Shown: in pieces, positions 12,935-26,353 of the stretch | How the letters are laid out: each line of letters begins with the position of its first letter | Numbering within the stretch: the stretch's first letter is position 1 | Assembly (NCBI RefSeq): GCF_004365815.1 | Contig: NZ_SODD01000001.1 | Span: 1 to 32,000 of the forward strand | Length of the DNA stretch: 32,000 nucleotides | From: Breznakia blatticola | Lineage (GTDB): Bacteria; Bacillota_I; Bacilli_A; Erysipelotrichales; Erysipelotrichaceae | Direction: 5' to 3' | The notes under the pieces: model-generated | The model's database searches: none | The model's input: the letters and a program-made list of their open reading frames with translations, nothing else | What the model was told of the DNA's origin: nothing | Position numbers and translations under genes: made by a program

Positions 12935-12974
12935 AAAGAAGCAGTATTGGCATTTAGTCCAATACTGCTTCTTT
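12935..12974. repeat. Perfect 16-bp inverted repeat (hairpin) spanning the stop codon of the ceramidase-like gene
   Basis: AAAGAAGCAGTATTGG (12935-12950) is the exact reverse complement of CCAATACTGCTTCTTT (12959-12974), with an 8-nt loop. On the plus strand it is followed by ATGTTTTTC. Confidence 0.6.
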
Positions 12975-14243
12975 ATGTTTTTCACGAATTCTTTCTTTGA
13001 TCTTTTTTACCTTTTCATTGATGAAGTGTACAAATGCTTCCCCTTCACCTTTTTCATAGTAAGTCATTAATGCCTCATAGTATTCCATATCATAGGCACT
13101 TTTATCAGGTAAGTAATATGCATATCCATTTGCATAGTTTACAACGATACAATCCTCACACTCTAATTTATTTGCAAGCGTAGAAAACATCTCAAATGGC
13201 ATAAAGATAAAACTGATAGGTCCAAGAACGACAATCGCAAAATGAATTTCTTGTGTTGGTAAACCATCATCATGTTTGATTAAGTTACAAAACATGGTCT
13301 CCCCTTCCACAATACTTTGTAGAAAACGAATTTCCATAGGATCTTGTAAGTTATCGGCAATCGCTTGATCTAAATGTTTTTGTGCTTTATCGATTTGGTT
13401 TTGGCAAACTTCAAGTGGTGGTAGTTCGCGTTTTTTCATATCATACGAAAAATGAAGTGCATAAATTTCATCAAGTGGCACTTCACGAGCCTCCACTAGT
13501 GATTCTTTAATTGCTGTTGCTACTTTTTTACCTAAACGACGAACCTCTCTAGGAGTACTGCTTTTACGGGTAAAGCGTGTACTAATATTACCCGAAGGCC
13601 CATTTAAAAACATTTGGTTTTTATATTCTGGTAAATGATGCGCAATTCCACCAACTAAATCTGAAGAAATCGCAGTACTTTCCGCACGTAAAATCGTAGG
13701 GTGTACAGGATAATGATACAACAAGATTGGATCTTTATCTTTACGCTCAAACTTAAATGTTGTCACTACATTATCAATTGGTATATATGGATCATGACGA
13801 CTTGCAGCAACCCCTTCTACTTCTTTTTGGGCTACTGAACAAGTAAACTCACTTAAATCCATAACTGCATTTTTTACAGCACTAATACTATTTACTGCTA
13901 GATGACGTAAAAAAGCCTCGTCTACTTCACCAAATAGGTCCTGTAAAGATTTCGATTCACACACACCTTTTGGAGCAGAATGCGTATGTGTTGCAATAAT
14001 TTGAATATCACTAAAGTTGTAAAGGCGTACTTCCAACTCTCTTTTAAGTTCATTATAGAAATGATAATCTACCGCGACAATATCTAGAGTTAACCATAAA
14101 TATTGTTTTTTATTTTCTTGAAACACCAATGCTTTTGCATAAAGTGGTGTATCGATTTTCGTTGATACACGCTTACCTAAAAAACCGGCTAATTCAATAC
14201 CGACCTTTGGTGTAATATCAACTTGGGCAAAGCCTATTTTCAT
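12954..14243 (-). CDS. Neutral/alkaline ceramidase-like N-terminal-domain protein (429 aa, no signal peptide); function unknown
   Basis: MKIGFAQVDITPKVGIELAGF... and IIATHTHSAPKG resemble the start and the H-x-H-S zinc motif of the non-lysosomal ceramidase fold. I moved the start to the ATG at 14243, which is preceded by GAAGGGAAG. Confidence 0.55.
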   Translation of the reverse strand: MKIGFAQVDITPKVGIELAGFLGKRVSTKIDTPLYAKALVFQENKKQYLWLTLDIVAVDYHFYNELKRELEVRLYNFSDIQIIATHTHSAPKGVCESKSLQDLFGEVDEAFLRHLAVNSISAVKNAVMDLSEFTCSVAQKEVEGVAASRHDPYIPIDNVVTTFKFERKDKDPILLYHYPVHPTILRAESTAISSDLVGGIAHHLPEYKNQMFLNGPSGNISTRFTRKSSTPREVRRLGKKVATAIKESLVEAREVPLDEIYALHFSYDMKKRELPPLEVCQNQIDKAQKHLDQAIADNLQDPMEIRFLQSIVEGETMFCNLIKHDDGLPTQEIHFAIVVLGPISFIFMPFEMFSTLANKLECEDCIVVNYANGYAYYLPDKSAYDMEYYEALMTYYEKGEGEAFVHFINEKVKKIKERIREKHKEAVLD

Positions 14244-14360
14244 ACATTCACTTCCCTTCTCATCTTCTATTATACCTTTTTTCATTAAGCAATGAAAGAT
14301 AATGAAACTATTGTAACATCATTGTATGAAGTTTTCGTGAAGTTTTCATACGTTTTCAGT

Positions 14361-14392: not shown

Positions 14393-15304
14393 TCATTGAA
14401 TATCATCAACATTATATGGTGTCTCTTGATAAATAAAATTTAACCAGTTTTGATATAGTAAATTCGCATGTGCTCGCCATGTATAGTATGGTAAACGTTT
14501 TGGATCTTCACCAACAAAATAGTTATGCGGTTTTGCAGTCGCAAGACCTTTATTTGCATCACGAATATACTCTTTTGCAAGTGTATCTAAATCGTATTCT
14601 AAGTGCCCTAAAATAAAGAAGTTCTTTTCATCTTTACTCATTATCATATTTGAACCGACATCACTCATTTTTGAAAGTACTGTAAGTGCATCACTATTTG
14701 ATACTTGCACTTCATTGACTCCCGTATAGCGTGATTGTGGACAGTCAAATATTTCATCAAAACCACCAACCACAAAATGTTTTCCTACAAGTTCTTGTTT
14801 ATAGATGCCAAATAGTTTCTCATCATAATCCACTTTTTCAATACCGTAGTGATAATAAAGACCTGCTTGTGCACCCCAACAAATATGTAAAGTACTTGTT
14901 ACATTGTGTTTTGACCACTCCATTACTTCACATAGTTCATCCCAGTAATCGACATCTTGAAATGCGTATTGTTCAACAGGTGCACCAGTAATAATCAAAG
15001 CATCATACTTTGTATCTTTCACATCTACAAATCGTAAATAGTATTTATGCAAATGTGATATATCCGTATTCTTTGATGTGTGTGATTCCATTCTTAGAAA
15101 ATCGACATCCACTTGTAAAGGTGTTTTACTGATTAAACGCAATAATTGAATTTCTGTTTCCACCTTTTTTGGCATTAAATTTACAATCAACAATTTTAAA
15201 GGTCGTATGTCTTGCGACATTGCTCGCTCATTGGATAAAGCGAAGATACTTTCCTGATCCAATGCTTTTTTTGCAGGAAAGTCATCATGTACATTAATTG
15301 GCAA
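14393..15304 (-). CDS. metA: Homoserine O-acyltransferase MetA (acetyl or succinyl specificity not decidable by eye)
   Basis: (M)PINVHDDFPAKKALDQESIFAL..RPLKLLIVNLMPKK..HICWGAQAGL is the canonical MetA signature. The start codon is TTG (15302-15304), 2 nt after the metY stop, with GGAG 7 nt upstream. Confidence 0.9.
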   Translation of the reverse strand: MPINVHDDFPAKKALDQESIFALSNERAMSQDIRPLKLLIVNLMPKKVETEIQLLRLISKTPLQVDVDFLRMESHTSKNTDISHLHKYYLRFVDVKDTKYDALIITGAPVEQYAFQDVDYWDELCEVMEWSKHNVTSTLHICWGAQAGLYYHYGIEKVDYDEKLFGIYKQELVGKHFVVGGFDEIFDCPQSRYTGVNEVQVSNSDALTVLSKMSDVGSNMIMSKDEKNFFILGHLEYDLDTLAKEYIRDANKGLATAKPHNYFVGEDPKRLPYYTWRAHANLLYQNWLNFIYQETPYNVDDIQ

Positions 15305-15306
15305 AA

Positions 15307-16578
15307 CTAAACTCCAACATGTGTAAGTGCTTGTTCAAGATCCGCAATAATATCATCTGCATTTTCTAGACCAATAGAAATACGCACTAGATTTGCAGGA
15401 ATATTTGCAGCTTCTAGTTCTTCATCACTTAATTGACGATGTGTTGCACTTGCTGGATGTAAAGCACAAGTTGCACTATCAGCAACATGAACTTCCATTT
15501 TAATTAATTTCAAGTTATCCAATAATTTTGCAGCATCTTCACGCCCACCTTTTAAAATGATTGATAATACGCCACTACAACCTTTTGGTAAGTATTTTTG
15601 TTGGAGGCTGTAGTATTTATTTGATGGTAAACCTGGATAGTTCACCGATTCAATTTTTTCATGATTTTCTAACCACGTTGCAACTTTGCATGCATTTTCA
15701 TAGTGACGGTCCATACGTAAGTGTAATGTGTCAATTCCTAGATTTAAGTAAAATGAATTTTGTGGTGCTGGTGTACATCCTAAATCACGCATCAACTGTG
15801 CAAGTGCTTTAGTAATGTAAGCTTGCTTACCAAATGCTTTTGTATAACTTAATCCATGGTATGAAGGATCTGGTTCACTAATTTGTGGGAATTTTCCATT
15901 GTCCCAATTAAACGTTCCTCCATCTACAATACATCCACCAACAGCTACTGCATGTCCATCAAGATATTTTGTTGTTGAATGTGTAACGATATCTGCTCCA
16001 AGTTTCAATGGATTACAGAAATATGGAGTAGGAAATGTATTATCCACAATCAATGGTACATCATGATCATGCGCTAGCTTACTAAACTTATCAAAGTCTA
16101 ATACACTCAATTGTGGGTTTGCTAATGTTTCAGCAAATACTGCTTTTGTATTGTCTTTAAGATATGTTTTTAGTTCATCTAATGGTAAATCTTGATCTAC
16201 AAATGTTACTTCAATTCCCATTTTCTTTAATGTATGCGCAAATAGATTGTATGTTCCTCCATAGATATTACTACTTGAAAGAATATGATCCCCACTGTGG
16301 GCTAGGTTCAAGATGGCAATAAAGCTTGCTGCTTGTCCACTACTTGTACATAGTGCACCAACTCCACCTTCTAATTCAGCAATACGTTTTTCAACTGCTG
16401 CAGTTGTTGGGTTTGCAAGTCTCGTATAAAAGAAGCCAGGAACTTTCAAATCGAATAAGTCACCAACATATTCTGTTGAATCATATGCAAATGTTGTGCT
16501 TTGCGTAATTGGTAAAACTCTAGGTTCTCCATTTTTCGCTTCATAGCCACTGTGTAATATTTTTGTTTCTACTTTCAT
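15307..16578 (-). CDS. metY: O-acetylhomoserine sulfhydrylase / aminocarboxypropyltransferase (PLP, Cys/Met-metabolism family)
   Basis: MKVETKILHSGYE.., YTRLANPT and VTHSTTKYLDGH (PLP lysine context) are present. The ATG at 16578 is preceded by AAGGGGGA. Confidence 0.9.
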   Translation of the reverse strand: MKVETKILHSGYEAKNGEPRVLPITQSTTFAYDSTEYVGDLFDLKVPGFFYTRLANPTTAAVEKRIAELEGGVGALCTSSGQAASFIAILNLAHSGDHILSSSNIYGGTYNLFAHTLKKMGIEVTFVDQDLPLDELKTYLKDNTKAVFAETLANPQLSVLDFDKFSKLAHDHDVPLIVDNTFPTPYFCNPLKLGADIVTHSTTKYLDGHAVAVGGCIVDGGTFNWDNGKFPQISEPDPSYHGLSYTKAFGKQAYITKALAQLMRDLGCTPAPQNSFYLNLGIDTLHLRMDRHYENACKVATWLENHEKIESVNYPGLPSNKYYSLQQKYLPKGCSGVLSIILKGGREDAAKLLDNLKLIKMEVHVADSATCALHPASATHRQLSDEELEAANIPANLVRISIGLENADDIIADLEQALTHVGV

Positions 16579-16600
16579 GTGTACATCCCCCTTATAAAAC

Positions 16601-16850
16601 AAAAAAATCTCTCATCCATAGGACGAAAGATTCGTGGTACCACCTATATTCGTATAGCTTTCACAAGACTATACCTCTTCGTGTTCTAACAAACACTATC
16701 GCTTTAACGGGCGAACCCGATATACATTTACAAATGCTCATGTATACAACTCCAAGACCATCTTCACTAATTATATCAATGTTCCTTTTCACCATCCAGA
16801 ACTCTCTAAGAATGACGCCATTAGTTACTCTTCTTTTCTTCGTTTTTGTT
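16601..16850 (-). promoter_or_regulatory. T-box leader (tRNA-sensing riboswitch), probable Met specifier, with intrinsic terminator
   Basis: The minus strand shows AGAGAG...GGATGGTGAAAAGG (Stem I motifs) and AGTGAAGATGG with ATG at plus-strand 16759-16761 in the specifier position. The T-box sequence TAGGTGGTACCACGAATC has its core at 16633-16644. The terminator AATCTTTCGTCC/GGATGAGAGATT plus TTTTTTT is at 16601-16632. Confidence 0.85.
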
Positions 16851-16963: not shown

Positions 16964-17491
16964 CTATCCTTCAGGATTGTATTCTATATCTTCGTATCCT
17001 TGTTCTACATACCATTCCAAGTAATCAAAGAAACCTTCATGACTCAATCCATATTCTCTATAATATTCGTTTACCCATGCCTCTGCTTCCTTCATGCTTT
17101 CAATTACTTCTTCATCACAATCAGTTTCTTCTGTTTCATAATAGTACATACAATATGTCATATTAGTATCTTTGCTATTATAAAACCTTGCCTTTTTTTC
17201 ACGTTTATTATCTATACTATCAAATATAACAATATTCTTATCTCCTTCATATCTATAGTCAATCGAGAATATTTTCTTTCCTAACCCTCGTGATAATCGA
17301 TTGTAATTCACTCCTAAATCAATCTTTGGATCGAGAGTAACACTTATTGAAGTTGATCGAGTATCAATTGAGTCAATTATGACTCCTGCCTTATCCATTT
17401 TCTCTTGGTACTTTTCTCCACTGAATGTTTGATTGCATCCTATCAGCATACACATTACAATCAATACACTTAGGATTCTTTTTTTTCTCAT
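16964..17491 (-). CDS. Lipoprotein (175 aa) in the immunity-gene position of the LXG cassette
   Basis: MRKKRILSVLIVMCMLIGCNQTF has a signal peptide and lipobox (L-I-G-C19). The start lies 4 nt after the LXG gene stop. I recognise no family. Confidence 0.7.
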   Translation of the reverse strand: MRKKRILSVLIVMCMLIGCNQTFSGEKYQEKMDKAGVIIDSIDTRSTSISVTLDPKIDLGVNYNRLSRGLGKKIFSIDYRYEGDKNIVIFDSIDNKREKKARFYNSKDTNMTYCMYYYETEETDCDEEVIESMKEAEAWVNEYYREYGLSHEGFFDYLEWYVEQGYEDIEYNPEG

Positions 17492-17495
17492 AGTA

Positions 17496-19229
17496 TTACT
17501 CCCCTACTTTCTTATTCATAAAATTTTCAACTCGTATTACAATCTCTTCAATCTCATTCACATATTCTAAATCGTTATACAAATCTGCTACATCTACTTT
17601 AGGAAGTCTAATATATATTGTCCCCTTTTTGTCATCAATATACTCACAACCTTCAAGACTCATACACATATCTTGTATTTCACTTATTTTTTTTATTTTA
17701 CTTGGATCAATCCCATACGTTGCTATTGCATCTAACTTCTGATTATAATTATCTACTGCTTTTCCTGTAGCTTCACTAAGAATAAACTGTGTATTATTTT
17801 TCACTGTTATACACTTCAGATCAAACTCATCTACCAACCCTGAATTAAGTAATACATCTTCATCTGTAAATCTTGAAGTACTTGTATACTTTCCGTTTTT
17901 ATACTTTTCTATTTGCTTTGAATCAATTCCATACACATTCATAATATCTGACAGTGCAATTGCACCATCTACTACAGTTAGTACTCCTATTTGATCCATA
18001 AATCCGACACCATAACTCATTAATCCTAGTAGAGTATCTACTCGATCCATCATTCGCTTATTTTCTACATAATCGATTATCATTTCTTTTTCTCCTAATC
18101 GACCATGTGATTTTACTTCAAATTCCACAGCATTGTTATTACCTGAATTTGCAAACGATACTCCAGTAAGCAATCCTTTTCCATCTATCTCGTCATATGA
18201 AAATAATGTTTCTGTTCCTAATATACCTCTTAGATCTAACACATAATCTAATTGTATGCTCATTTCCAACATTGCTTCTACTTTAACAAATCGTTTCGCA
18301 TATTTTTCCCATTCGAAATCTTTGTTGTTTACATTTAGGATTCCTTCTTCTCGTAGTTTATGTTCACTCATAAAAAGTACTAATTGAAATAGAGGTGAAG
18401 GTGAATACCCATTCTTCACCTGTGATTTTTCTGTGTCATATATTCGTGTTATGTCATATGGCACATTATATCCATACGTCATAATTAATGGCATTTCACT
18501 TTCATCAATGCGAATGATAATATCCGTGATATTTTCGAATTCTTCACGACTAACGTCACCAATATCTTTCTTGAGTATTCTTTCGATATACTTCTTTCCT
18601 TCTTCAGTCAATTTACCATCTGCAGTAATGTATTTAGATAAATATGCGTCTTTCGACTCTTCTACCCATGATAAATCAACATCTGTAAACTGCAGTTTTT
18701 TAGTATCAAAACTTACATCCTTTACTACTTCAATTCCGCGCTTTAACTGTTGAATGTATATCTCTGTGTGATCATAATACTTATTTGCTTGTATGTCATA
18801 ATCATAAAGATCATCTATCTTTCTTCTCAAAACTCTTAAATTATATTGATATAGTTCTTCAATTCCTGCAGTAAACTGCATTGGCATACTTTCCAATTTT
18901 CTTAACATTCCGTTTATACTCATAATTATCGTCTCAATTTCTTCCTCATTAAGATATTGATCTCCGAGCATACATGTATATAGATTTTCAGTACTTCGAT
19001 TTGATCGAATTAGTTCCTCACACAACCAAATATGAATCTGATATAAATTATAATACACACTCCGTATATAACGTTTATGAGCTGCAAAAGCTTGTCCTTG
19101 TAATTCTTGATTCACACAAAAAGCATCAATCTCTTTCAATACAGATTGACTAGTTTCTTTCATTTCTCTTAATGCACTATTTAAATCACTGAATTGGTTT
19201 TGCATTTCTCTAAGATGGAAGGACTTCAT
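17496..19229 (-). CDS. LXG-domain protein (type VII secretion polymorphic toxin candidate), 577 aa, with an unassigned C-terminal region
   Basis: The N-terminal ~190 aa look helical and contain ELQGQAFAAHKRYIRSVYY (L43-x-G45; nt 19095-19103), the LXG signature context. There is no signal peptide. The RBS AGAGGAGGAAACAGATA is strong. The gene is flanked by small helper-like genes upstream and a candidate immunity gene downstream. Confidence 0.75.
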   Translation of the reverse strand: MKSFHLREMQNQFSDLNSALREMKETSQSVLKEIDAFCVNQELQGQAFAAHKRYIRSVYYNLYQIHIWLCEELIRSNRSTENLYTCMLGDQYLNEEEIETIIMSINGMLRKLESMPMQFTAGIEELYQYNLRVLRRKIDDLYDYDIQANKYYDHTEIYIQQLKRGIEVVKDVSFDTKKLQFTDVDLSWVEESKDAYLSKYITADGKLTEEGKKYIERILKKDIGDVSREEFENITDIIIRIDESEMPLIMTYGYNVPYDITRIYDTEKSQVKNGYSPSPLFQLVLFMSEHKLREEGILNVNNKDFEWEKYAKRFVKVEAMLEMSIQLDYVLDLRGILGTETLFSYDEIDGKGLLTGVSFANSGNNNAVEFEVKSHGRLGEKEMIIDYVENKRMMDRVDTLLGLMSYGVGFMDQIGVLTVVDGAIALSDIMNVYGIDSKQIEKYKNGKYTSTSRFTDEDVLLNSGLVDEFDLKCITVKNNTQFILSEATGKAVDNYNQKLDAIATYGIDPSKIKKISEIQDMCMSLEGCEYIDDKKGTIYIRLPKVDVADLYNDLEYVNEIEEIVIRVENFMNKKVGE

Positions 19230-19458
19230 TATCTGTTTCCTCCTCTTTACTTATTTCTCTTTCTATTTCTTCTAACTCTTGACTTACTTTATTCATTGCC
19301 CTTTTATGAATATCCAAGCTTTCTTTTGACATATTCCCACTGTCAGTCAAAGGAAATATCTCATAAAGATTTGCAAACAATTCATTGCTTTCCTTTAATA
19401 ATTCTCTTAGTTCTTCAAGTTTCCCTTTTTGTATATACAACACATCTTTATTATTCAT
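19210..19458 (-). CDS. Small acidic helical protein (82 aa) in the Lap2/DUF3958-like helper position
   Basis: The composition is rich in heptad-like Leu/Glu repeats (KGKLEELRELLKESNELFANLYE...VSQELEEIEREISKEEE). Its ATG overlaps the stop of the 87-aa gene (ATGA), and its 3' end overlaps the LXG gene by 20 nt. The assignment rests on synteny and size. Confidence 0.5.
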   Translation of the reverse strand: MNNKDVLYIQKGKLEELRELLKESNELFANLYEIFPLTDSGNMSKESLDIHKRAMNKVSQELEEIEREISKEEETDNEVLPS

Positions 19459-19718
19459 TTTCCAATTTCATCTCCAATCTTCGCATCAAGATTTTTAAAG
19501 TTTTTGGAAATAGTTTCTACTTTACCTATATCTCTTTTAAAGTAATTATGAATACTTTTGTGTATAGTAAAAGTTTCATTTGCTTGAAATGAAATTCTTT
19601 CTTGTGTAGATAGATTAGTAGCAGATGAATATTTTACTTGATTGATAGTTGTTTTTACTTTAGTTTGTAGTTTATTAAGAAAACTACTTATATACTTATG
19701 ATTAACTCGCACTGGCAT
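19455..19718 (-). CDS. Small T7SS-effector-like protein (87 aa) of the TIGR04197/DUF3130 (Lap1-like) type
   Basis: First gene of the cassette, with the RBS GAGGGGAAAAGA. Its length, its Ser/Thr/Asn/Gln-rich N-terminal and central part, and its C-terminal ...VETISKNFKNLDAKIGDEIGK resemble the F-x-x-x-D-x-x-I/L tail of SACOL2603-family proteins. Confidence 0.55.
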   Translation of the reverse strand: MPVRVNHKYISSFLNKLQTKVKTTINQVKYSSATNLSTQERISFQANETFTIHKSIHNYFKRDIGKVETISKNFKNLDAKIGDEIGK

Positions 19719-19748: not shown

Positions 19749-19776
19749 ATTATAACAGTTGAGATTTTTTCGTCAA
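19749..19776 (-). promoter_or_regulatory. Strong sigma-A-type promoter of the LXG cassette
   Basis: The minus strand reads TTGACG (19771-19776), a 16-nt spacer ending in TGT, then TATAAT (19749-19754). It lies about 30 nt upstream of the first gene's RBS. Confidence 0.6.
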
Positions 19777-22073: not shown

Positions 22074-22100
22074 TAAGAAAAGCATGTGCAAGCACATGCT
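22074..22100 (-). terminator. Probable terminator after the S-component-like gene
   Basis: AGCATGTGC (22081-22089) pairs with GCACATGCT (22092-22100). On the minus strand it is followed by TTTCTTA. The stem overlaps the stop codon. Confidence 0.55.
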
Positions 22101-22599
22101 AGAGTTTGTATTTTATACTAAGTTGACCAAGTACTTGGTTTACTTTTGAAAATAGTATTAGCATAATCATAAAATTGGCAATTCCGTGAATTACATCGTA
22201 TGGAATTCCACGCACATAATATGCAACTCCTATTTCAAATGACATCATAAAGTATGGAATCGAAAATAAGAAACCAAAACTTAAACCAAATAGTCCGCTA
22301 AAAAATGCCCAACGATATTCATCTGTACATATCTTTTTACACAATTTCGTTATACAAACAAGTCCTGGCCAAACCATGAAATAAACAGGTGTCCAAGTTC
22401 CTACGCCATAAAGAATCATTTGCAGAAAGCAAAAGAGTACGCTTATAAATAAACATCCACGTAGTTGAAAATGTAACGCATACATAATCAGTAGAAAGCT
22501 CACCAATTCGACATTTGGTAGAAAGGCTAACATCTCTTTGGAAACAACAAGTAAAGCTGCACACATTGTGTAAATGACAATACTTTGCACATTACGCAT
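22099..22599 (-). CDS. Small polytopic membrane protein (~166 aa, about 5-6 TM), ECF-transporter S-component-like; candidate cobalamin-specific
   Basis: The hydrophobic profile and size are typical of ECF S components. The gene is co-transcribed behind a cobalamin riboswitch. The start is uncertain: ATG at 22599 or TTG at 22608, neither with a strong RBS. Confidence 0.55.
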   Translation of the reverse strand: MRNVQSIVIYTMCAALLVVSKEMLAFLPNVELVSFLLIMYALHFQLRGCLFISVLFCFLQMILYGVGTWTPVYFMVWPGLVCITKLCKKICTDEYRWAFFSGLFGLSFGFLFSIPYFMMSFEIGVAYYVRGIPYDVIHGIANFMIMLILFSKVNQVLGQLSIKYKL

Positions 22600-22600
22600 G

Positions 22601-23032
22601 TTATTCAAAAGCCATTAAAGTAAATGTAAAGCTATCGTTATCAACGATATTTAAATCTTCAGCTGACGGGCAAAAATCTGCTTTTGTACATTGTTCATTT
22701 GTATCTGATGTATAAGTCCAAAATGTATTGGCAGTTTTATCTTCTTTATACATTTTTGAGCCACCCATTCCCGTAATATACATTCCATAGTCACTGTTTG
22801 TATAGTCTAGTTTAATGGTTTTTTCATCCTTCAATTCTTTTAGTAAATCAGCAAGTGAACTTGCATTAGTTTTTACTTGTTCATTGAAGACTTCTTTGTC
22901 ATCAGCAACAATTACGACTTGCACTGTTTTTTTACTATCATCTTTGTTGAGTTCGCGATATCCATAGATTCCACCTACAACAGCAAGTAGTAAAACGAGT
23001 GCTCCAACTATCAATTTTGTTTTTTTATTCAT
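22601..23032 (-). CDS. Membrane-anchored exported protein (143 aa), DUF4430 / transcobalamin-beta-domain-like; candidate surface B12-binding protein
   Basis: The N-terminal anchor is MNKKTKLIVGALVLLLAVVGGIYGY. The mature part includes ...YGMYITGMGG...FWTYTSD..., resembling DUF4430 proteins. It is the first gene after the cobalamin riboswitch. Confidence 0.55.
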   Translation of the reverse strand: MNKKTKLIVGALVLLLAVVGGIYGYRELNKDDSKKTVQVVIVADDKEVFNEQVKTNASSLADLLKELKDEKTIKLDYTNSDYGMYITGMGGSKMYKEDKTANTFWTYTSDTNEQCTKADFCPSAEDLNIVDNDSFTFTLMAFE

Positions 23033-23360: not shown

Positions 23361-25739
23361 TTATCCGATAATTTGTTGCACAATTTTAACTGTAGCCATG
23401 GCATCTACACCATAATAGTCAGCATGAATCTCATCTGCGATTTCTTGCGTTAAGACTGCCCCACCAACCATTATTGGACAAACCTCATCATATTGACGTA
23501 AGGCTTCAATGGTTTTCTTCATCGAAACAACAGTTGTTGTCATCAGTGCAGATAATCCAATTGCTTTTGGTTTATATTTCAAAAATGCATCAACCACACT
23601 TTGCACTGGAACATTTTTTCCTAAATCGATGACTTCATAGCCATACGATTCCAATACAACTTTCACAATATTCTTACCAATATCATGAATATCACCTTCC
23701 ACTGTAGCCATTATAATAGGCCCTTTTTTTGTTGCTGAGCTTCCTTGCATTCTACTTTGGAGTACTTCAAAAGCTACTTTCGTTGTTTCTGCTGATTGAA
23801 TGAGTTGTGGCAAGAAAATCTTTCCACTTTCATAATCATCACCTACTTGATTTAAAGCAGGAATAACAATATCTTGGACGATATCGAGTGGTTGTTTAGT
23901 TTCTAATTCTTGTGTAGCTAATGTATGCACTTCATCTTTTAAGCCGCGTATTATTGCATCATATAGTGACATTTGATCAAAACTTTGTGTTGTATTTGTA
24001 TGATGTTGAACTACTTTCTTTTCTACAGTCACATTTGCTTGATGTGCAATGTACTTTGTACTATCCACATCTTGATTAGTGATTACATTGAATGCGTCAA
24101 TAGTTGACATCAATTCAAAATCCAGTGGATTGATAATTGGCAAATCTAGGCCTGCTTGCATCGCCATCGTAAGGAATGTACGGTTTAGTAATGGACGATT
24201 AGGCAAACCAAAAGATACATTACTTACACCTAGTACCGTATGATGTCCAAGTTCTTTTACCATTTGTAGAGCTCGTAGTGTTTCTTGCACTTCTTTTTGT
24301 TGAGCACTTGCAGTTAAAGTTAAACAATCAATAATTACATCTTTAGGATGAATTCCATAAGCTTCTGCTTGTTTTATCATATCCTTAGCGAGTTGAACTC
24401 GTTCACTAGCTAATAGTGGAATTTGATCAGCAAGAGTTAAACCAATAACTACTCCACCATACTTCTTAGCAATCGGTAGTATATTATGCATTACTTCTGG
24501 TTTAGCATTAATCGAGTTAATTAATGGTCGTCCATTGTAATATCGACATGCTTTTTCTAGCGCTTCGGGTGAAGAACTATCCATCTGTAGTGGTAAATTG
24601 ATCACTTCTTGAATCATTTTCACCACTTTTGTCATGACTTGGCTTTCATCGATACCTGGCACACCAACATTCACATCAAGAATATCTGCACCAGCTTCTT
24701 GTTGGTGAATGGCTTCACGTAATACTTCATCATATTTTTCATCAAGTAGTGCTTGTTTTAACTTTTTCTTTCCCGTAGGGTTCAAACGTTCTCCACATAC
24801 AATTACCTGATTTTCAAAAGTAACAGTTTTACTACCACTGGATACTCTTGTTTTCTTCTTAGCAGGTGTAAAGTGCAATCCTAACTCACTTGCTTTTTTT
24901 GCTTCTTGAATAAATGCAGGTGTTGTTCCACAACAACCACCAATGATACTGACTCCCATTTCTACAAACCTATGGGCATACATTGCATATTCTTCACTTG
25001 TTAAATGATAATGTGTTTCTCCATGTTCTAAACATGGTAAACCAGCATTTGGTTGTACAATCATTGGAATTCTAGCAACAGCTAAAATTTCTTCGACAAT
25101 CGGTAATAGTTCTTTAGGACCAAGTGAGCAGTTTACACCAAGTACATCTGCACCCAAACCTTCAACGACATTCACAAATGTCAATGGGTCTGTTCCAGTT
25201 AATGAACGTCCATTTGCTTCAAAAGTCATTGATACAATAATTGGTAAATCACAGGTTTCCTTAATTGCGAGTATTGCTGCTTTGACTTCATAAATATCCG
25301 TCATTGTTTCCACAATAAATGCATCTACTTTATCTTTAGCAAACTCTACTTGCACTTTGAATTGTTCGTAGGCTTCATCAAATGATAATGTTCCCATTGG
25401 TTCTAACAATTGTCCAATCGGTCCCATATCATAGGCGATATATACTTCACGATCTACACCTATCTTTGCTTGATTTGCATTATCAATTGCATGTGTAATC
25501 AAATCTTCTAATTCATACAAGCTGTCTGCCATCTTATAAGGCGAACAACCAAATGTATTTGTACTAATAAAATCAGCACCTGCATCTAGGTATGACTTGT
25601 GAATACGAATCATATCCTCTTTACGGGTGATATTATATTCTTCAGGAATGTCTCCAGCTTTTAAGCCAATGTTTTGTAGTTGGGTACCCATCGCCCCATC
25701 AAAAACGAGAACTCGTTTCTTTAACTGTTCTAGTAACAT
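23361..25739 (-). CDS. metH: Cobalamin-dependent methionine synthase MetH, core only (Hcy-binding, pterin-binding, B12 cap and B12-binding domains; no activation domain)
   Basis: The Hcy methyltransferase domain is marked by VFDGAMGTQL and GGCCGTTP. The pterin-binding region includes INSI. The B12-binding motif is VEGDIHDIGKNIV (DxHxxG). At 792 aa it is about 440 aa shorter than full-length MetH. The ATG at 25739 is preceded by AAGGGGGAG. Confidence 0.9.
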   Translation of the reverse strand: MLLEQLKKRVLVFDGAMGTQLQNIGLKAGDIPEEYNITRKEDMIRIHKSYLDAGADFISTNTFGCSPYKMADSLYELEDLITHAIDNANQAKIGVDREVYIAYDMGPIGQLLEPMGTLSFDEAYEQFKVQVEFAKDKVDAFIVETMTDIYEVKAAILAIKETCDLPIIVSMTFEANGRSLTGTDPLTFVNVVEGLGADVLGVNCSLGPKELLPIVEEILAVARIPMIVQPNAGLPCLEHGETHYHLTSEEYAMYAHRFVEMGVSIIGGCCGTTPAFIQEAKKASELGLHFTPAKKKTRVSSGSKTVTFENQVIVCGERLNPTGKKKLKQALLDEKYDEVLREAIHQQEAGADILDVNVGVPGIDESQVMTKVVKMIQEVINLPLQMDSSSPEALEKACRYYNGRPLINSINAKPEVMHNILPIAKKYGGVVIGLTLADQIPLLASERVQLAKDMIKQAEAYGIHPKDVIIDCLTLTASAQQKEVQETLRALQMVKELGHHTVLGVSNVSFGLPNRPLLNRTFLTMAMQAGLDLPIINPLDFELMSTIDAFNVITNQDVDSTKYIAHQANVTVEKKVVQHHTNTTQSFDQMSLYDAIIRGLKDEVHTLATQELETKQPLDIVQDIVIPALNQVGDDYESGKIFLPQLIQSAETTKVAFEVLQSRMQGSSATKKGPIIMATVEGDIHDIGKNIVKVVLESYGYEVIDLGKNVPVQSVVDAFLKYKPKAIGLSALMTTTVVSMKKTIEALRQYDEVCPIMVGGAVLTQEIADEIHADYYGVDAMATVKIVQQIIG

Positions 25740-26353
25740 GTGCTCCCCCTTTTTAAATACTCGCAGTGTTCTTTTTGTGTACAACTTTTGCACGACTTCT
25801 TTTGTTTATCCATATGTAAACCCACAAATCCAGTCATGCTTTTCATTGGCACAAATAAACTGGATGCATCTAATGAAACCCCAATCTTTTTATGCAAATT
25901 CATGAGCTTGCATAACTGTTGATTTAATTCTAATGGTATATCACCATATCCAGGTGCATAGCGAAAACTATGATTTTTACCAAACACTTCATCTTCATAT
26001 GCATCGCAACAAGCTTCCACATAAGCGGAAGCAACTGCATCAAAGACTACAGCTTTTTGCATATCAAGAGAGTGATAATATCGAGTTCTACTATCGATTT
26101 CACTTCCTAAAGTACAAGCGATAATTGCAATTTCTTTACATGAACCTAATGCTTCAATTAAATCATTTGAATCTACGCGTAAATCAAAAGCAGTTAAAAT
26201 AAAAGGTGCTTGTAACTTACTAATCACATACGTTGCTTTAAAATGTGAAAGTTCTTTAACTTCTTTCTCGCATGTATCTAATAGTTCAAGAAATGAATCA
26301 CTCAATTCCTGATTACTATATCCTAAGTATTTTAATGCAGTTTGTTTAATCAT
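25730..26353 (-). CDS. Stand-alone methionine synthase activation (reactivation, AdoMet-binding) domain protein with a Cys-rich tail
   Basis: The 207-aa protein carries ...FRYAPGYGDIPL...SMTGFVGL..., which resembles the MetH C-terminal activation domain. The C-terminus is CKSCTQKEHCEYLKRGSTCY (C-x2-C-x5-C-x8-C). The gene overlaps metF (8 nt) and metH (10 nt). Confidence 0.7.
   Translation of the reverse strand: MIKQTALKYLGYSNQELSDSFLELLDTCEKEVKELSHFKATYVISKLQAPFILTAFDLRVDSNDLIEALGSCKEIAIIACTLGSEIDSRTRYYHSLDMQKAVVFDAVASAYVEACCDAYEDEVFGKNHSFRYAPGYGDIPLELNQQLCKLMNLHKKIGVSLDASSLFVPMKSMTGFVGLHMDKQKKSCKSCTQKEHCEYLKRGSTCY

Follow-up and report, generated by a model that had tools for sequence, protein, structure and literature searches.

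What does the long C-terminal region of an LXG protein do when no toxin motif can be recognized in it by eye? The question was raised by a 577-amino-acid protein encoded on the minus strand of a 32,000-nucleotide stretch of the Breznakia blatticola genome (Erysipelotrichaceae; contig NZ_SODD01000001.1, positions 1 to 32,000), which is referred to below as the window. The product of the open reading frame (ORF) at 17496..19229 is identical to hypothetical protein EDD63_10121, labelled "LXG domain-containing protein" in UniRef. The initial annotation of this DNA placed residues 201-577 at 17499..18629 on the minus strand and pointed to an acidic cluster, FTDEDVLLNSGLVDEFD (residues 454-470), a Gly-rich stretch, LLGLMSYGVGFMDQIGVLTVVDGAIAL (residues 400-426), and two YGID motifs, VYGIDSKQIEKY (residues 432-443) and TYGIDPSKIKKI (residues 504-515); when re-read from the 577-residue frame, the coordinates and the four motif positions were all exact. 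It had proposed a candidate new effector domain, either a divergent TelC-like cell-envelope toxin or an undescribed activity. The answer favoured here, which we consider somewhat more probable than the contrary, is that the protein is a polymorphic LXG effector with an orphan C-terminal payload that would act outside the cytoplasmic membrane, with export through a type VIIb secretion system (T7SSb), toxicity, immunity through a lipoprotein and targeting of the envelope as the parts that we infer. The protein and its regions are as follows.

17496..19229 (-), stop codon included: LXG-type protein, 577 amino acids, B. blatticola EDD63_10121, with Shine-Dalgarno GAGGAGG
18645..19229 (-): LXG-like helical domain at the N-terminus (residues 1 to ~195), from sub-threshold Pfam LXG and PHROG matches and predicted helices
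18225..18644 (-): residues 196-335, the middle region; more conserved than the rest of the protein, and alone in being modelled with moderate confidence
17499..18224 (-): residues 336-577, the variable part of the C-terminal region and probably the payload and specificity module, with raised nonsynonymous divergence (dN) and no family or PDB match

An Orphan C-Terminal Region

The view that residues 201-577 hold no recognizable toxin motif was borne out by searches of Pfam, NCBIfam and the PDB, by tblastn and by regular expressions. Zero Pfam families matched residues 201-577 at E<=10 and zero NCBIfam families matched the LXG protein, and when the protein (phmmer) and two family profiles (hmmsearch) were compared with all PDB chains at E<=10, the only match was noise at E=2. 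Nothing was found by tblastn of residues 201-577 against plasmids and phages, scans of genome, metagenome and viral contigs brought no further relatives of these residues, and the PHROG matches were confined to N-terminal residues 5-165, with none for residues 201-577. HxxH, HExxH, CxxC, GxSxG and the P-loop were all absent in the regular-expression scan, and the C-terminal region has no nuclease, deaminase or ADP-ribosyltransferase (ART)-type motif. A confident match to a characterized toxin family was looked for in Pfam, NCBIfam and the PDB, and none was found.

Relatives were few. Two word-indexed searches of 5.8 billion proteins recovered the LXG protein alone, and when residues 201-577 were compared exhaustively by phmmer with 1.84 billion cluster representatives, two proteins came back, the query and P0002, a 563-amino-acid protein from a European Nucleotide Archive (ENA) metagenome assembly that is 27% identical across the whole 201-577 region (E=5e-17). 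By exact-sequence cluster look-up, the family comprises six sequences in two lineages: the window protein, its second paralog in the B. blatticola genome (P0011, EDD63_12915, 94%-identical), the syntenic ortholog of an unclassified Breznakia (P0010, 94%-identical; GCA_029893515.1, locus L002) and three near-identical copies of P0002. So far the family is known only from Breznakia and a single metagenomic lineage of low GC content. With no characterized family, structure or toxin detected, the proposal of a candidate new effector domain, or of an undescribed activity, stands.

The alignment of the family showed which residues of the C-terminal region are kept, and the three features that had been singled out by eye could be judged against it.

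18012..18047 (-): D395-x2-D398-x2-L-G-L-M-x-Y406, invariant in 6/6 family members, the strongest C-terminal motif
17952..18032 (-): Gly-rich hydrophobic stretch, residues 400-426, Kyte-Doolittle 19-residue maximum 1.61, with Asp inside
17820..17870 (-): acidic cluster, residues 454-470, not conserved

The acidic cluster lost its standing as a significant motif. Only N462 and D467 are invariant within it when the distant homolog and the Breznakia alleles are aligned, and two of its aspartates are replaced (D456E and D458N) even in the 94%-identical ortholog P0010. The YGID repeat proved to be at chance level, as a repeated 4-mer arose in 70% of shuffles of the C-terminal region, the hhalign self-comparison gave a probability of ~1%, and the second copy sits in a hypervariable patch where the sister alleles have YGVD or YGIN. 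An internal duplication, considered from the YGID pair and a DxYN pair, was rejected on non-significant shuffle tests and hhalign self-comparisons. As to the Gly-rich stretch, its core, D395xxD398xxLGLMxY406, is conserved, but the remainder carries a 6-residue indel. Conserved aspartates are found at D395, D398, D467, D500, D546 and D549, and no His or Cys is conserved in the family alignment, the distant homolog P0002 included, so that catalysis, if the payload is enzymatic, would be expected to depend on carboxylates or on Ser, Lys or Tyr. In that case E380, D395, D398, D467, D500, D546 and D549 would be the candidate catalytic residues.

Two AlphaFold2 models were made, one of the full-length protein and one of residues 196-577, each from an alignment of two divergent sequences. 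Both were poor, with predicted local distance difference test (pLDDT) values of 47.1 (full length) and 43.6 (residues 196-577), and only residues ~196-255 and 278-330 were moderately confident; in the middle region, the means of 10-residue blocks were mostly ~55-90, with a low-confidence gap at ~256-275 in both models. Residues 336-577 were given a mixed alpha/beta secondary structure at low confidence in both runs, including at least eight beta-strands predicted in residues 336-545, where the pLDDT was 20-50. Foldseek comparison of the two models with the PDB gave no match at E<=0.001, and TelC was absent among the 50 matches listed. A structural comparison of the C-terminal region with the PDB had been suggested as a check, and it returned no match to a known fold, but the models were too poor for the result to carry much weight.

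Several leads from these comparisons were followed and set aside. The top Foldseek matches, to XLF, Arp2/3 and OXA-48, were noise (probability <=0.63, root-mean-square deviation 15-25 Å). An OXA or penicillin-binding protein (PBP) type of SxxK enzyme was considered because S288xxK291 is conserved and OXA-48 was weakly matched, and was rejected with a probability of 0.03-0.04, an SxxK that lies mid-helix in the model and no conserved SxN or KTG. A family-1 lytic transglycosylase (SLT), the catalytic domain of which has ES, GLMQ and AYNxG motifs, was considered from E380...GLM...YN and was compared by aligning the family sub-alignments with an alignment of E. coli Slt70, MltC, MltD, MltE and MltF; the hhalign probability was 0.1-0.2%, and Pfam gave no SLT match.

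A Lipoprotein Directly Downstream

The gene that follows the LXG gene is the principal evidence for where the payload would act.

16964..17491 (-): lipoprotein, 175 amino acids, candidate extracytoplasmic immunity protein; starts 4 nucleotides after the toxin stop, with Shine-Dalgarno GGGGAG
17435-17491 (-): signal peptide and lipobox, MRKKRILSVLIVMCMLIGC, residues 1-19 of the 175-amino-acid lipoprotein

The lipoprotein family consists of seven proteins at E<=0.01, itself included, all of them from Breznakia, and it has no Pfam or PDB match. Its termini are conserved and its centre (residues ~50-112) is variable, with two central sequence types among the paralogs, …KKIFSIDYRYE… and …E[KR]TITIGFEYKDD…. 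In the L002 locus (L002:7189-10525, compared with window 16964-19718), two full-length lipoprotein paralogs follow the orthologous toxin, where the window has one. Four more paralogs, two of them truncated, are present in B. blatticola, and their locus tags adjoin the second toxin copy, EDD63_12915; the set EDD63_12910-12915 comprises the P0011 toxin and lipoproteins P0005, P0006, P0008 and P0009, and the locus tags suggest an immunity island. One of the truncated paralogs, P0008 (EDD63_12913), has the UniRef name "Beta-lactamase inhibitor (BLIP)", a link that neither Pfam (E<=10) nor a search of the PDB with the family's profile bore out.

At the same position in the P0002 locus are two tandem paralogs of 163 and 164 amino acids, each with an N-terminal signal anchor, the first of which overlaps the toxin stop codon. 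A cytoplasmic small ORF after the toxin was found in none of the three loci, where the next gene always encodes an exported protein and is translationally coupled, or nearly so. By position and paralogy, what lies directly downstream fits the cognate immunity gene, or genes, of an LXG toxin, in multiple copies. All of the candidate immunity proteins are exported and membrane-tethered, which makes a site outside the cytoplasmic membrane the most likely one for the payload.

A Hypervariable Patch in the Likely Payload

The window gene was compared codon by codon with its 94%-identical ortholog, and the differences between the two were concentrated near the C-terminus.

17607..17717 (-): hypervariable mosaic patch, residues 505-541, with C522, C528 and the second YGID motif; differs in 3/3 Breznakia alleles

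Residues 1-350 are almost invariant, with a synonymous divergence (dS) of 0.073 and a dN of 0.0047, and residues 505-545 have a dS of 0.50 and a dN of 0.32; across residues 336-577, dN is 0.078. The three Breznakia alleles nevertheless share C522 and C528. It is plausible that the patch behaves as a toxin-immunity specificity surface would be expected to.

The N-Terminal Domain, the Middle Module and the Upstream Partners

The N-terminal residues resemble an LXG domain at the margin of detection. The Pfam LXG profile (PF04740; cut-off 26.5) matches residues 3-82 of the window protein on profile positions 2-82 at 19.1 bits (E=0.0013) and P0002 on profile positions 138-190 at 24.4 bits (E=3.1e-5), and these sub-threshold matches are co-linear in both lineages. 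The motif E42-L43-x-G45-x-A47 (ELxGxA) is conserved, and its LxG (19095-19103) is invariant in the family. PHROG families 24213 and 22940 match residues 5-165 with E-values of 1.5e-14 and 3.5e-11, and AlphaFold2 predicts four long helices for the domain. The middle region, residues 196-335, is 33% identical to P0002, compared with identities of 19% in the N-terminal domain and 23.5% in residues 336-577; it contains MSExKL (287-292) and DFxW (304-307) and varies hardly at all between Breznakia alleles (dN 0.008).

The LXG gene is the third of a cassette of four that lies between housekeeping genes, in the order Lap1-like (with FxxxD), Lap2-like, LXG protein and lipoprotein. This order is conserved, with the two signal-anchored paralogs taking the last place in the P0002 locus. 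All four genes have a Shine-Dalgarno sequence, and neighbouring genes overlap or nearly abut.

19749..19776 (-): promoter-like site upstream of the cassette, TTGACG, 16-nucleotide spacer, TG-TATAAT; an 11/12 consensus match only
19455..19718 (-): Lap1-like helical protein, 87 amino acids, candidate T7SSb targeting factor; first cassette gene, with Shine-Dalgarno GAGGGG
19485..19499 (-): FKNLD (FxxxD motif), residues 74-78 of the 87-amino-acid protein; FDEYD at the aligned position of the distant locus
19210..19458 (-): acidic helical protein, 82 amino acids, Lap2-like by position only; second cassette gene

DUF3130/Lap1 proteins are targeting factors, and FxxxD is the Lap1 motif needed for the export of LXG proteins (PMC9600955). 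The 87-amino-acid protein of the window is weakly similar to the 92-amino-acid protein found at the same position in the P0002 locus (BLASTP E=1e-4; hhalign E=0.0027, probability 11%), and the latter matches DUF3130/Lap1 just below the cut-off of 25 (E=9e-5, 23.1 bits). The 82-amino-acid protein has no family match and no detectable similarity to its 105-amino-acid counterpart in the P0002 locus, which itself matches DUF3958 at E=0.089.

Two further observations concern these small genes and their upstream neighbour. The start of the Lap2-like gene differs between the window (19210-19458, minus strand) and the Breznakia ortholog locus (L002:7473-7697): the internal Met of L002 is an Ile (ATA) in the window, so that translation must begin 8 codons upstream, at an ATG that overlaps the stop of the gene before it. 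Just upstream of the Lap-like genes in the P0002-type locus is a gene for a 227-amino-acid predicted membrane protein (L001:1223-1906, plus strand), of which the L003 copy of that locus appears to keep only the 3' end.

The Favoured Reading and Its Alternatives

If the protein is an envelope-acting LXG effector, its working can be pictured as follows. The two small helical proteins would attach to the LXG helices at the N-terminus and direct the effector to a type VIIb secretion system, with residues 196-335 serving as a conserved middle module and residues 336-577 as the diversifying payload. Acting on a neighbouring Gram-positive cell from beyond its cytoplasmic membrane, the payload may attack the outer leaflet, a lipid-linked wall precursor or the wall, and the surface-tethered lipoprotein would neutralize it by binding, with patch 505-541 as a plausible immunity-specificity surface. 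The payload is most likely similar to TelC and TslA in the cell compartment where it acts and a member of neither family. A bolder proposal, possible but doubtful in our judgement, is that residues 336-577 (possibly 196-577) have a new fold and a new envelope-attacking activity, with specificity set by the recombining patch 505-541 as read by a co-diversifying lipoprotein.

Several points weigh against this reading of the cassette. The core T7SSb genes (EssC, EsaA, EssB and EsxA) are absent within the 32-kb window and within the 13-15 kb loci of the relatives, the Pfam LXG scores of both homologs lie below the gathering threshold, and the Lap2 assignment is one of position alone. The lipoproteins of the two lineages have no detectable similarity (BLASTP E=7.5; hhalign probability 0.7%), so that it is from their position and paralogy that they are called candidate "immunity" proteins. 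In the patch dS is raised as well as dN, which points to a recombined mosaic segment and does not prove positive selection. Since both structural models are poor, the payload may yet have a known fold, and the Foldseek negatives weigh little. Toxicity, secretion and binding are, moreover, all read from sequence and genomic context.

The suggestion of a divergent TelC-like cell-envelope toxin came apart into two halves, of which the envelope action is supported by context and the homology is not. The analogy with an envelope toxin is supported because the downstream protein is an exported lipoprotein, with signal-anchored paralogs in the distant locus. In layout the locus resembles that of TelC and its immunity protein TipC of Streptococcus intermedius: both show an LXG-type domain at the N-terminus, followed by a payload of ~350-380 amino acids, two small helical upstream genes that look Lap1/Lap2-like, the first of apparent DUF3130/Lap1 type with FxxxD, and immunity proteins (here candidates) that are tethered outside the membrane in several paralogs, with an envelope site of action that would be shared. 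TipC has an N-terminal transmembrane segment, is located in the inner wall zone and has multiple paralogs (PMC6193138); the Breznakia candidate, unlike TipC, is a lipoprotein and is unrelated in sequence. A highly divergent Ca-dependent lipid II phosphatase of the TelC type (prok-TelC/Lipocone), with the conserved aspartates D395, D398, D467, D500, D546 and D549 as its metal site, would account for this layout, yet we regard it as highly unlikely. Neither by sequence nor by profile was any similarity to TelC detected: no TelC chain was recovered from the PDB at E<=10 by phmmer or the two profiles (5UKH being presumed present in that copy), no TelC-family representative came from the exhaustive phmmer search, whose sole relative, P0002, is not TelC-like, and TelC was missing from the Foldseek matches listed, from weak models. 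The Asp-rich cluster at 454-470 is not conserved, and the fold may differ, as the Breznakia payload is predicted, at low confidence, to be mixed alpha/beta, with at least eight strands in residues 336-545, whereas the fold of TelC is two-lobed and its toxin domain is described as alpha-helical for the most part, with just one beta-hairpin (PMC5555719).

A membrane-depolarizing or pore-forming toxin like TspA, TelE or EsxX, in which the Gly-rich segment 398-426 inserts into the target membrane, would share with those proteins an LXG-type architecture and a C-terminal Gly-rich hydrophobic segment. No C-terminal motif is better conserved than the LGLMxY core with the Gly-rich stretch that follows it and has few charges, an uncharged run of 22 residues is present in P0002, the Kyte-Doolittle maximum reaches 1.6-1.7 in the Breznakia alleles, and membrane action from outside would suit a surface immunity protein. 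This possibility is nevertheless unlikely. That hydrophobicity is borderline, the segment holds two Asp in Breznakia, and in P0002 it has a 6-residue deletion, a lower hydropathy score and is not the most hydrophobic window; only a single such segment is present. The glycine zipper (GxxxGxxxG) of the known toxins is lacking, with no GxxxG in residues 400-426 of the window protein and a single GQVLG in P0002. The characterized depolarizing T7SS toxins are not known to have lipoproteins for immunity, their immunity proteins being integral to the membrane, which also counts against a pore, given the lipoprotein that is the candidate here.

Most characterized LXG payloads act in the cytoplasm, and this one could be a nuclease, NADase, ADP-ribosyltransferase or similar enzyme of an unrecognized family for which the lipoprotein is not the immunity protein, a choice of fold that the poor models leave free. 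Such a toxin is quite improbable here, as the downstream gene encodes an exported protein in all three loci with no cytoplasmic small ORF, and the C-terminal region has neither conserved His or Cys nor any motif of the nuclease, deaminase or ART type. The protein may, on the other hand, be no toxin at all, and instead a surface or recognition factor, secreted by the T7SS, whose docking on the variable lipoprotein would serve adhesion or the recognition of kin. The absence of a toxic motif agrees with that, and a variable patch in one partner together with a variable centre in the other fits it also. However, the architecture of the cassette is that of LXG toxin-immunity loci, the truncated lipoprotein paralogs and the four whose tags adjoin the second toxin copy are typical of an immunity island, and no precedent is known for LXG proteins as recognition or adhesion factors; this explanation is very unlikely.

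Neighbouring Genes and Regulatory Elements

The cassette is flanked upstream by an alpha-amylase gene and downstream by genes for a Cys/Met-metabolism pyridoxal phosphate (PLP) enzyme and a homoserine O-succinyltransferase (14393-16602). The downstream boundary of the toxin cassette is a T-box leader.

16616-16849 (-): T-box leader RF00230, 122.6 bits, E=5.8e-27, between the lipoprotein gene and the Cys/Met-metabolism genes

The T-box unit has a promoter-like site of its own (16884-16857) and a terminator-like hairpin (16633-16605). Elsewhere in the window, a cobalamin riboswitch (RF00174; 23072-23248, minus strand; 107 bits) lies directly downstream of the gene for a B12-dependent methionine synthase (23361-25793) and upstream of the ORFs 22601-23032 and 22099-22608, which encode a DUF4430 protein and an unannotated 169-amino-acid multi-pass membrane protein; this riboswitch unit may be a B12 uptake module. 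A 443-amino-acid ORF at 12954-14285 (minus strand), conserved in L002, gives a Pfam match to the neutral/alkaline ceramidase N-terminal domain (E=1.6e-19), an annotation that is unusual for an Erysipelotrichaceae genome.

Known Systems and Significance

Few T7SSb toxins are known to act outside the cytoplasmic membrane of the target, the characterized ones being TelC and the TslA/TslM lipases, and it is a standing question how such toxins get to the inner wall zone. Besides TelC-TipC, the locus can be set beside TslA-TilA of Staphylococcus aureus, a T7SS phospholipase and its immunity lipoprotein. The two systems are alike in an extracellular lipoprotein from a multi-copy variable family, in two small helical partners and in a toxin thought to act from outside the cell. 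They are unlike in that TslA has its LXG-like domain at the C-terminus and a recognizable lipase domain, whereas the LXG domain of the Breznakia protein is N-terminal and neither GxSxG nor an alpha/beta-hydrolase match is present; nor is the Breznakia lipoprotein a DUF576 protein. TilA is an extracellular immunity lipoprotein of a multigene family (PMC10730906).

The importance of the locus should be set against the tiny size of the family and a function that we infer only, and uncharacterized C-terminal regions are common among LXG proteins. If the bolder proposal is true, its new fold and activity would make this the second envelope-targeting class of LXG payload after TelC. Among toxins that act from outside, a third unrelated payload, with a surface lipoprotein for immunity, would be a real extension, and a new antibacterial target or chemistry might come to light with it. 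Three alleles occur naturally in Breznakia, and together with the localized mosaic patch and the matched lipoprotein paralogs they offer a ready system for mapping toxin-immunity specificity.

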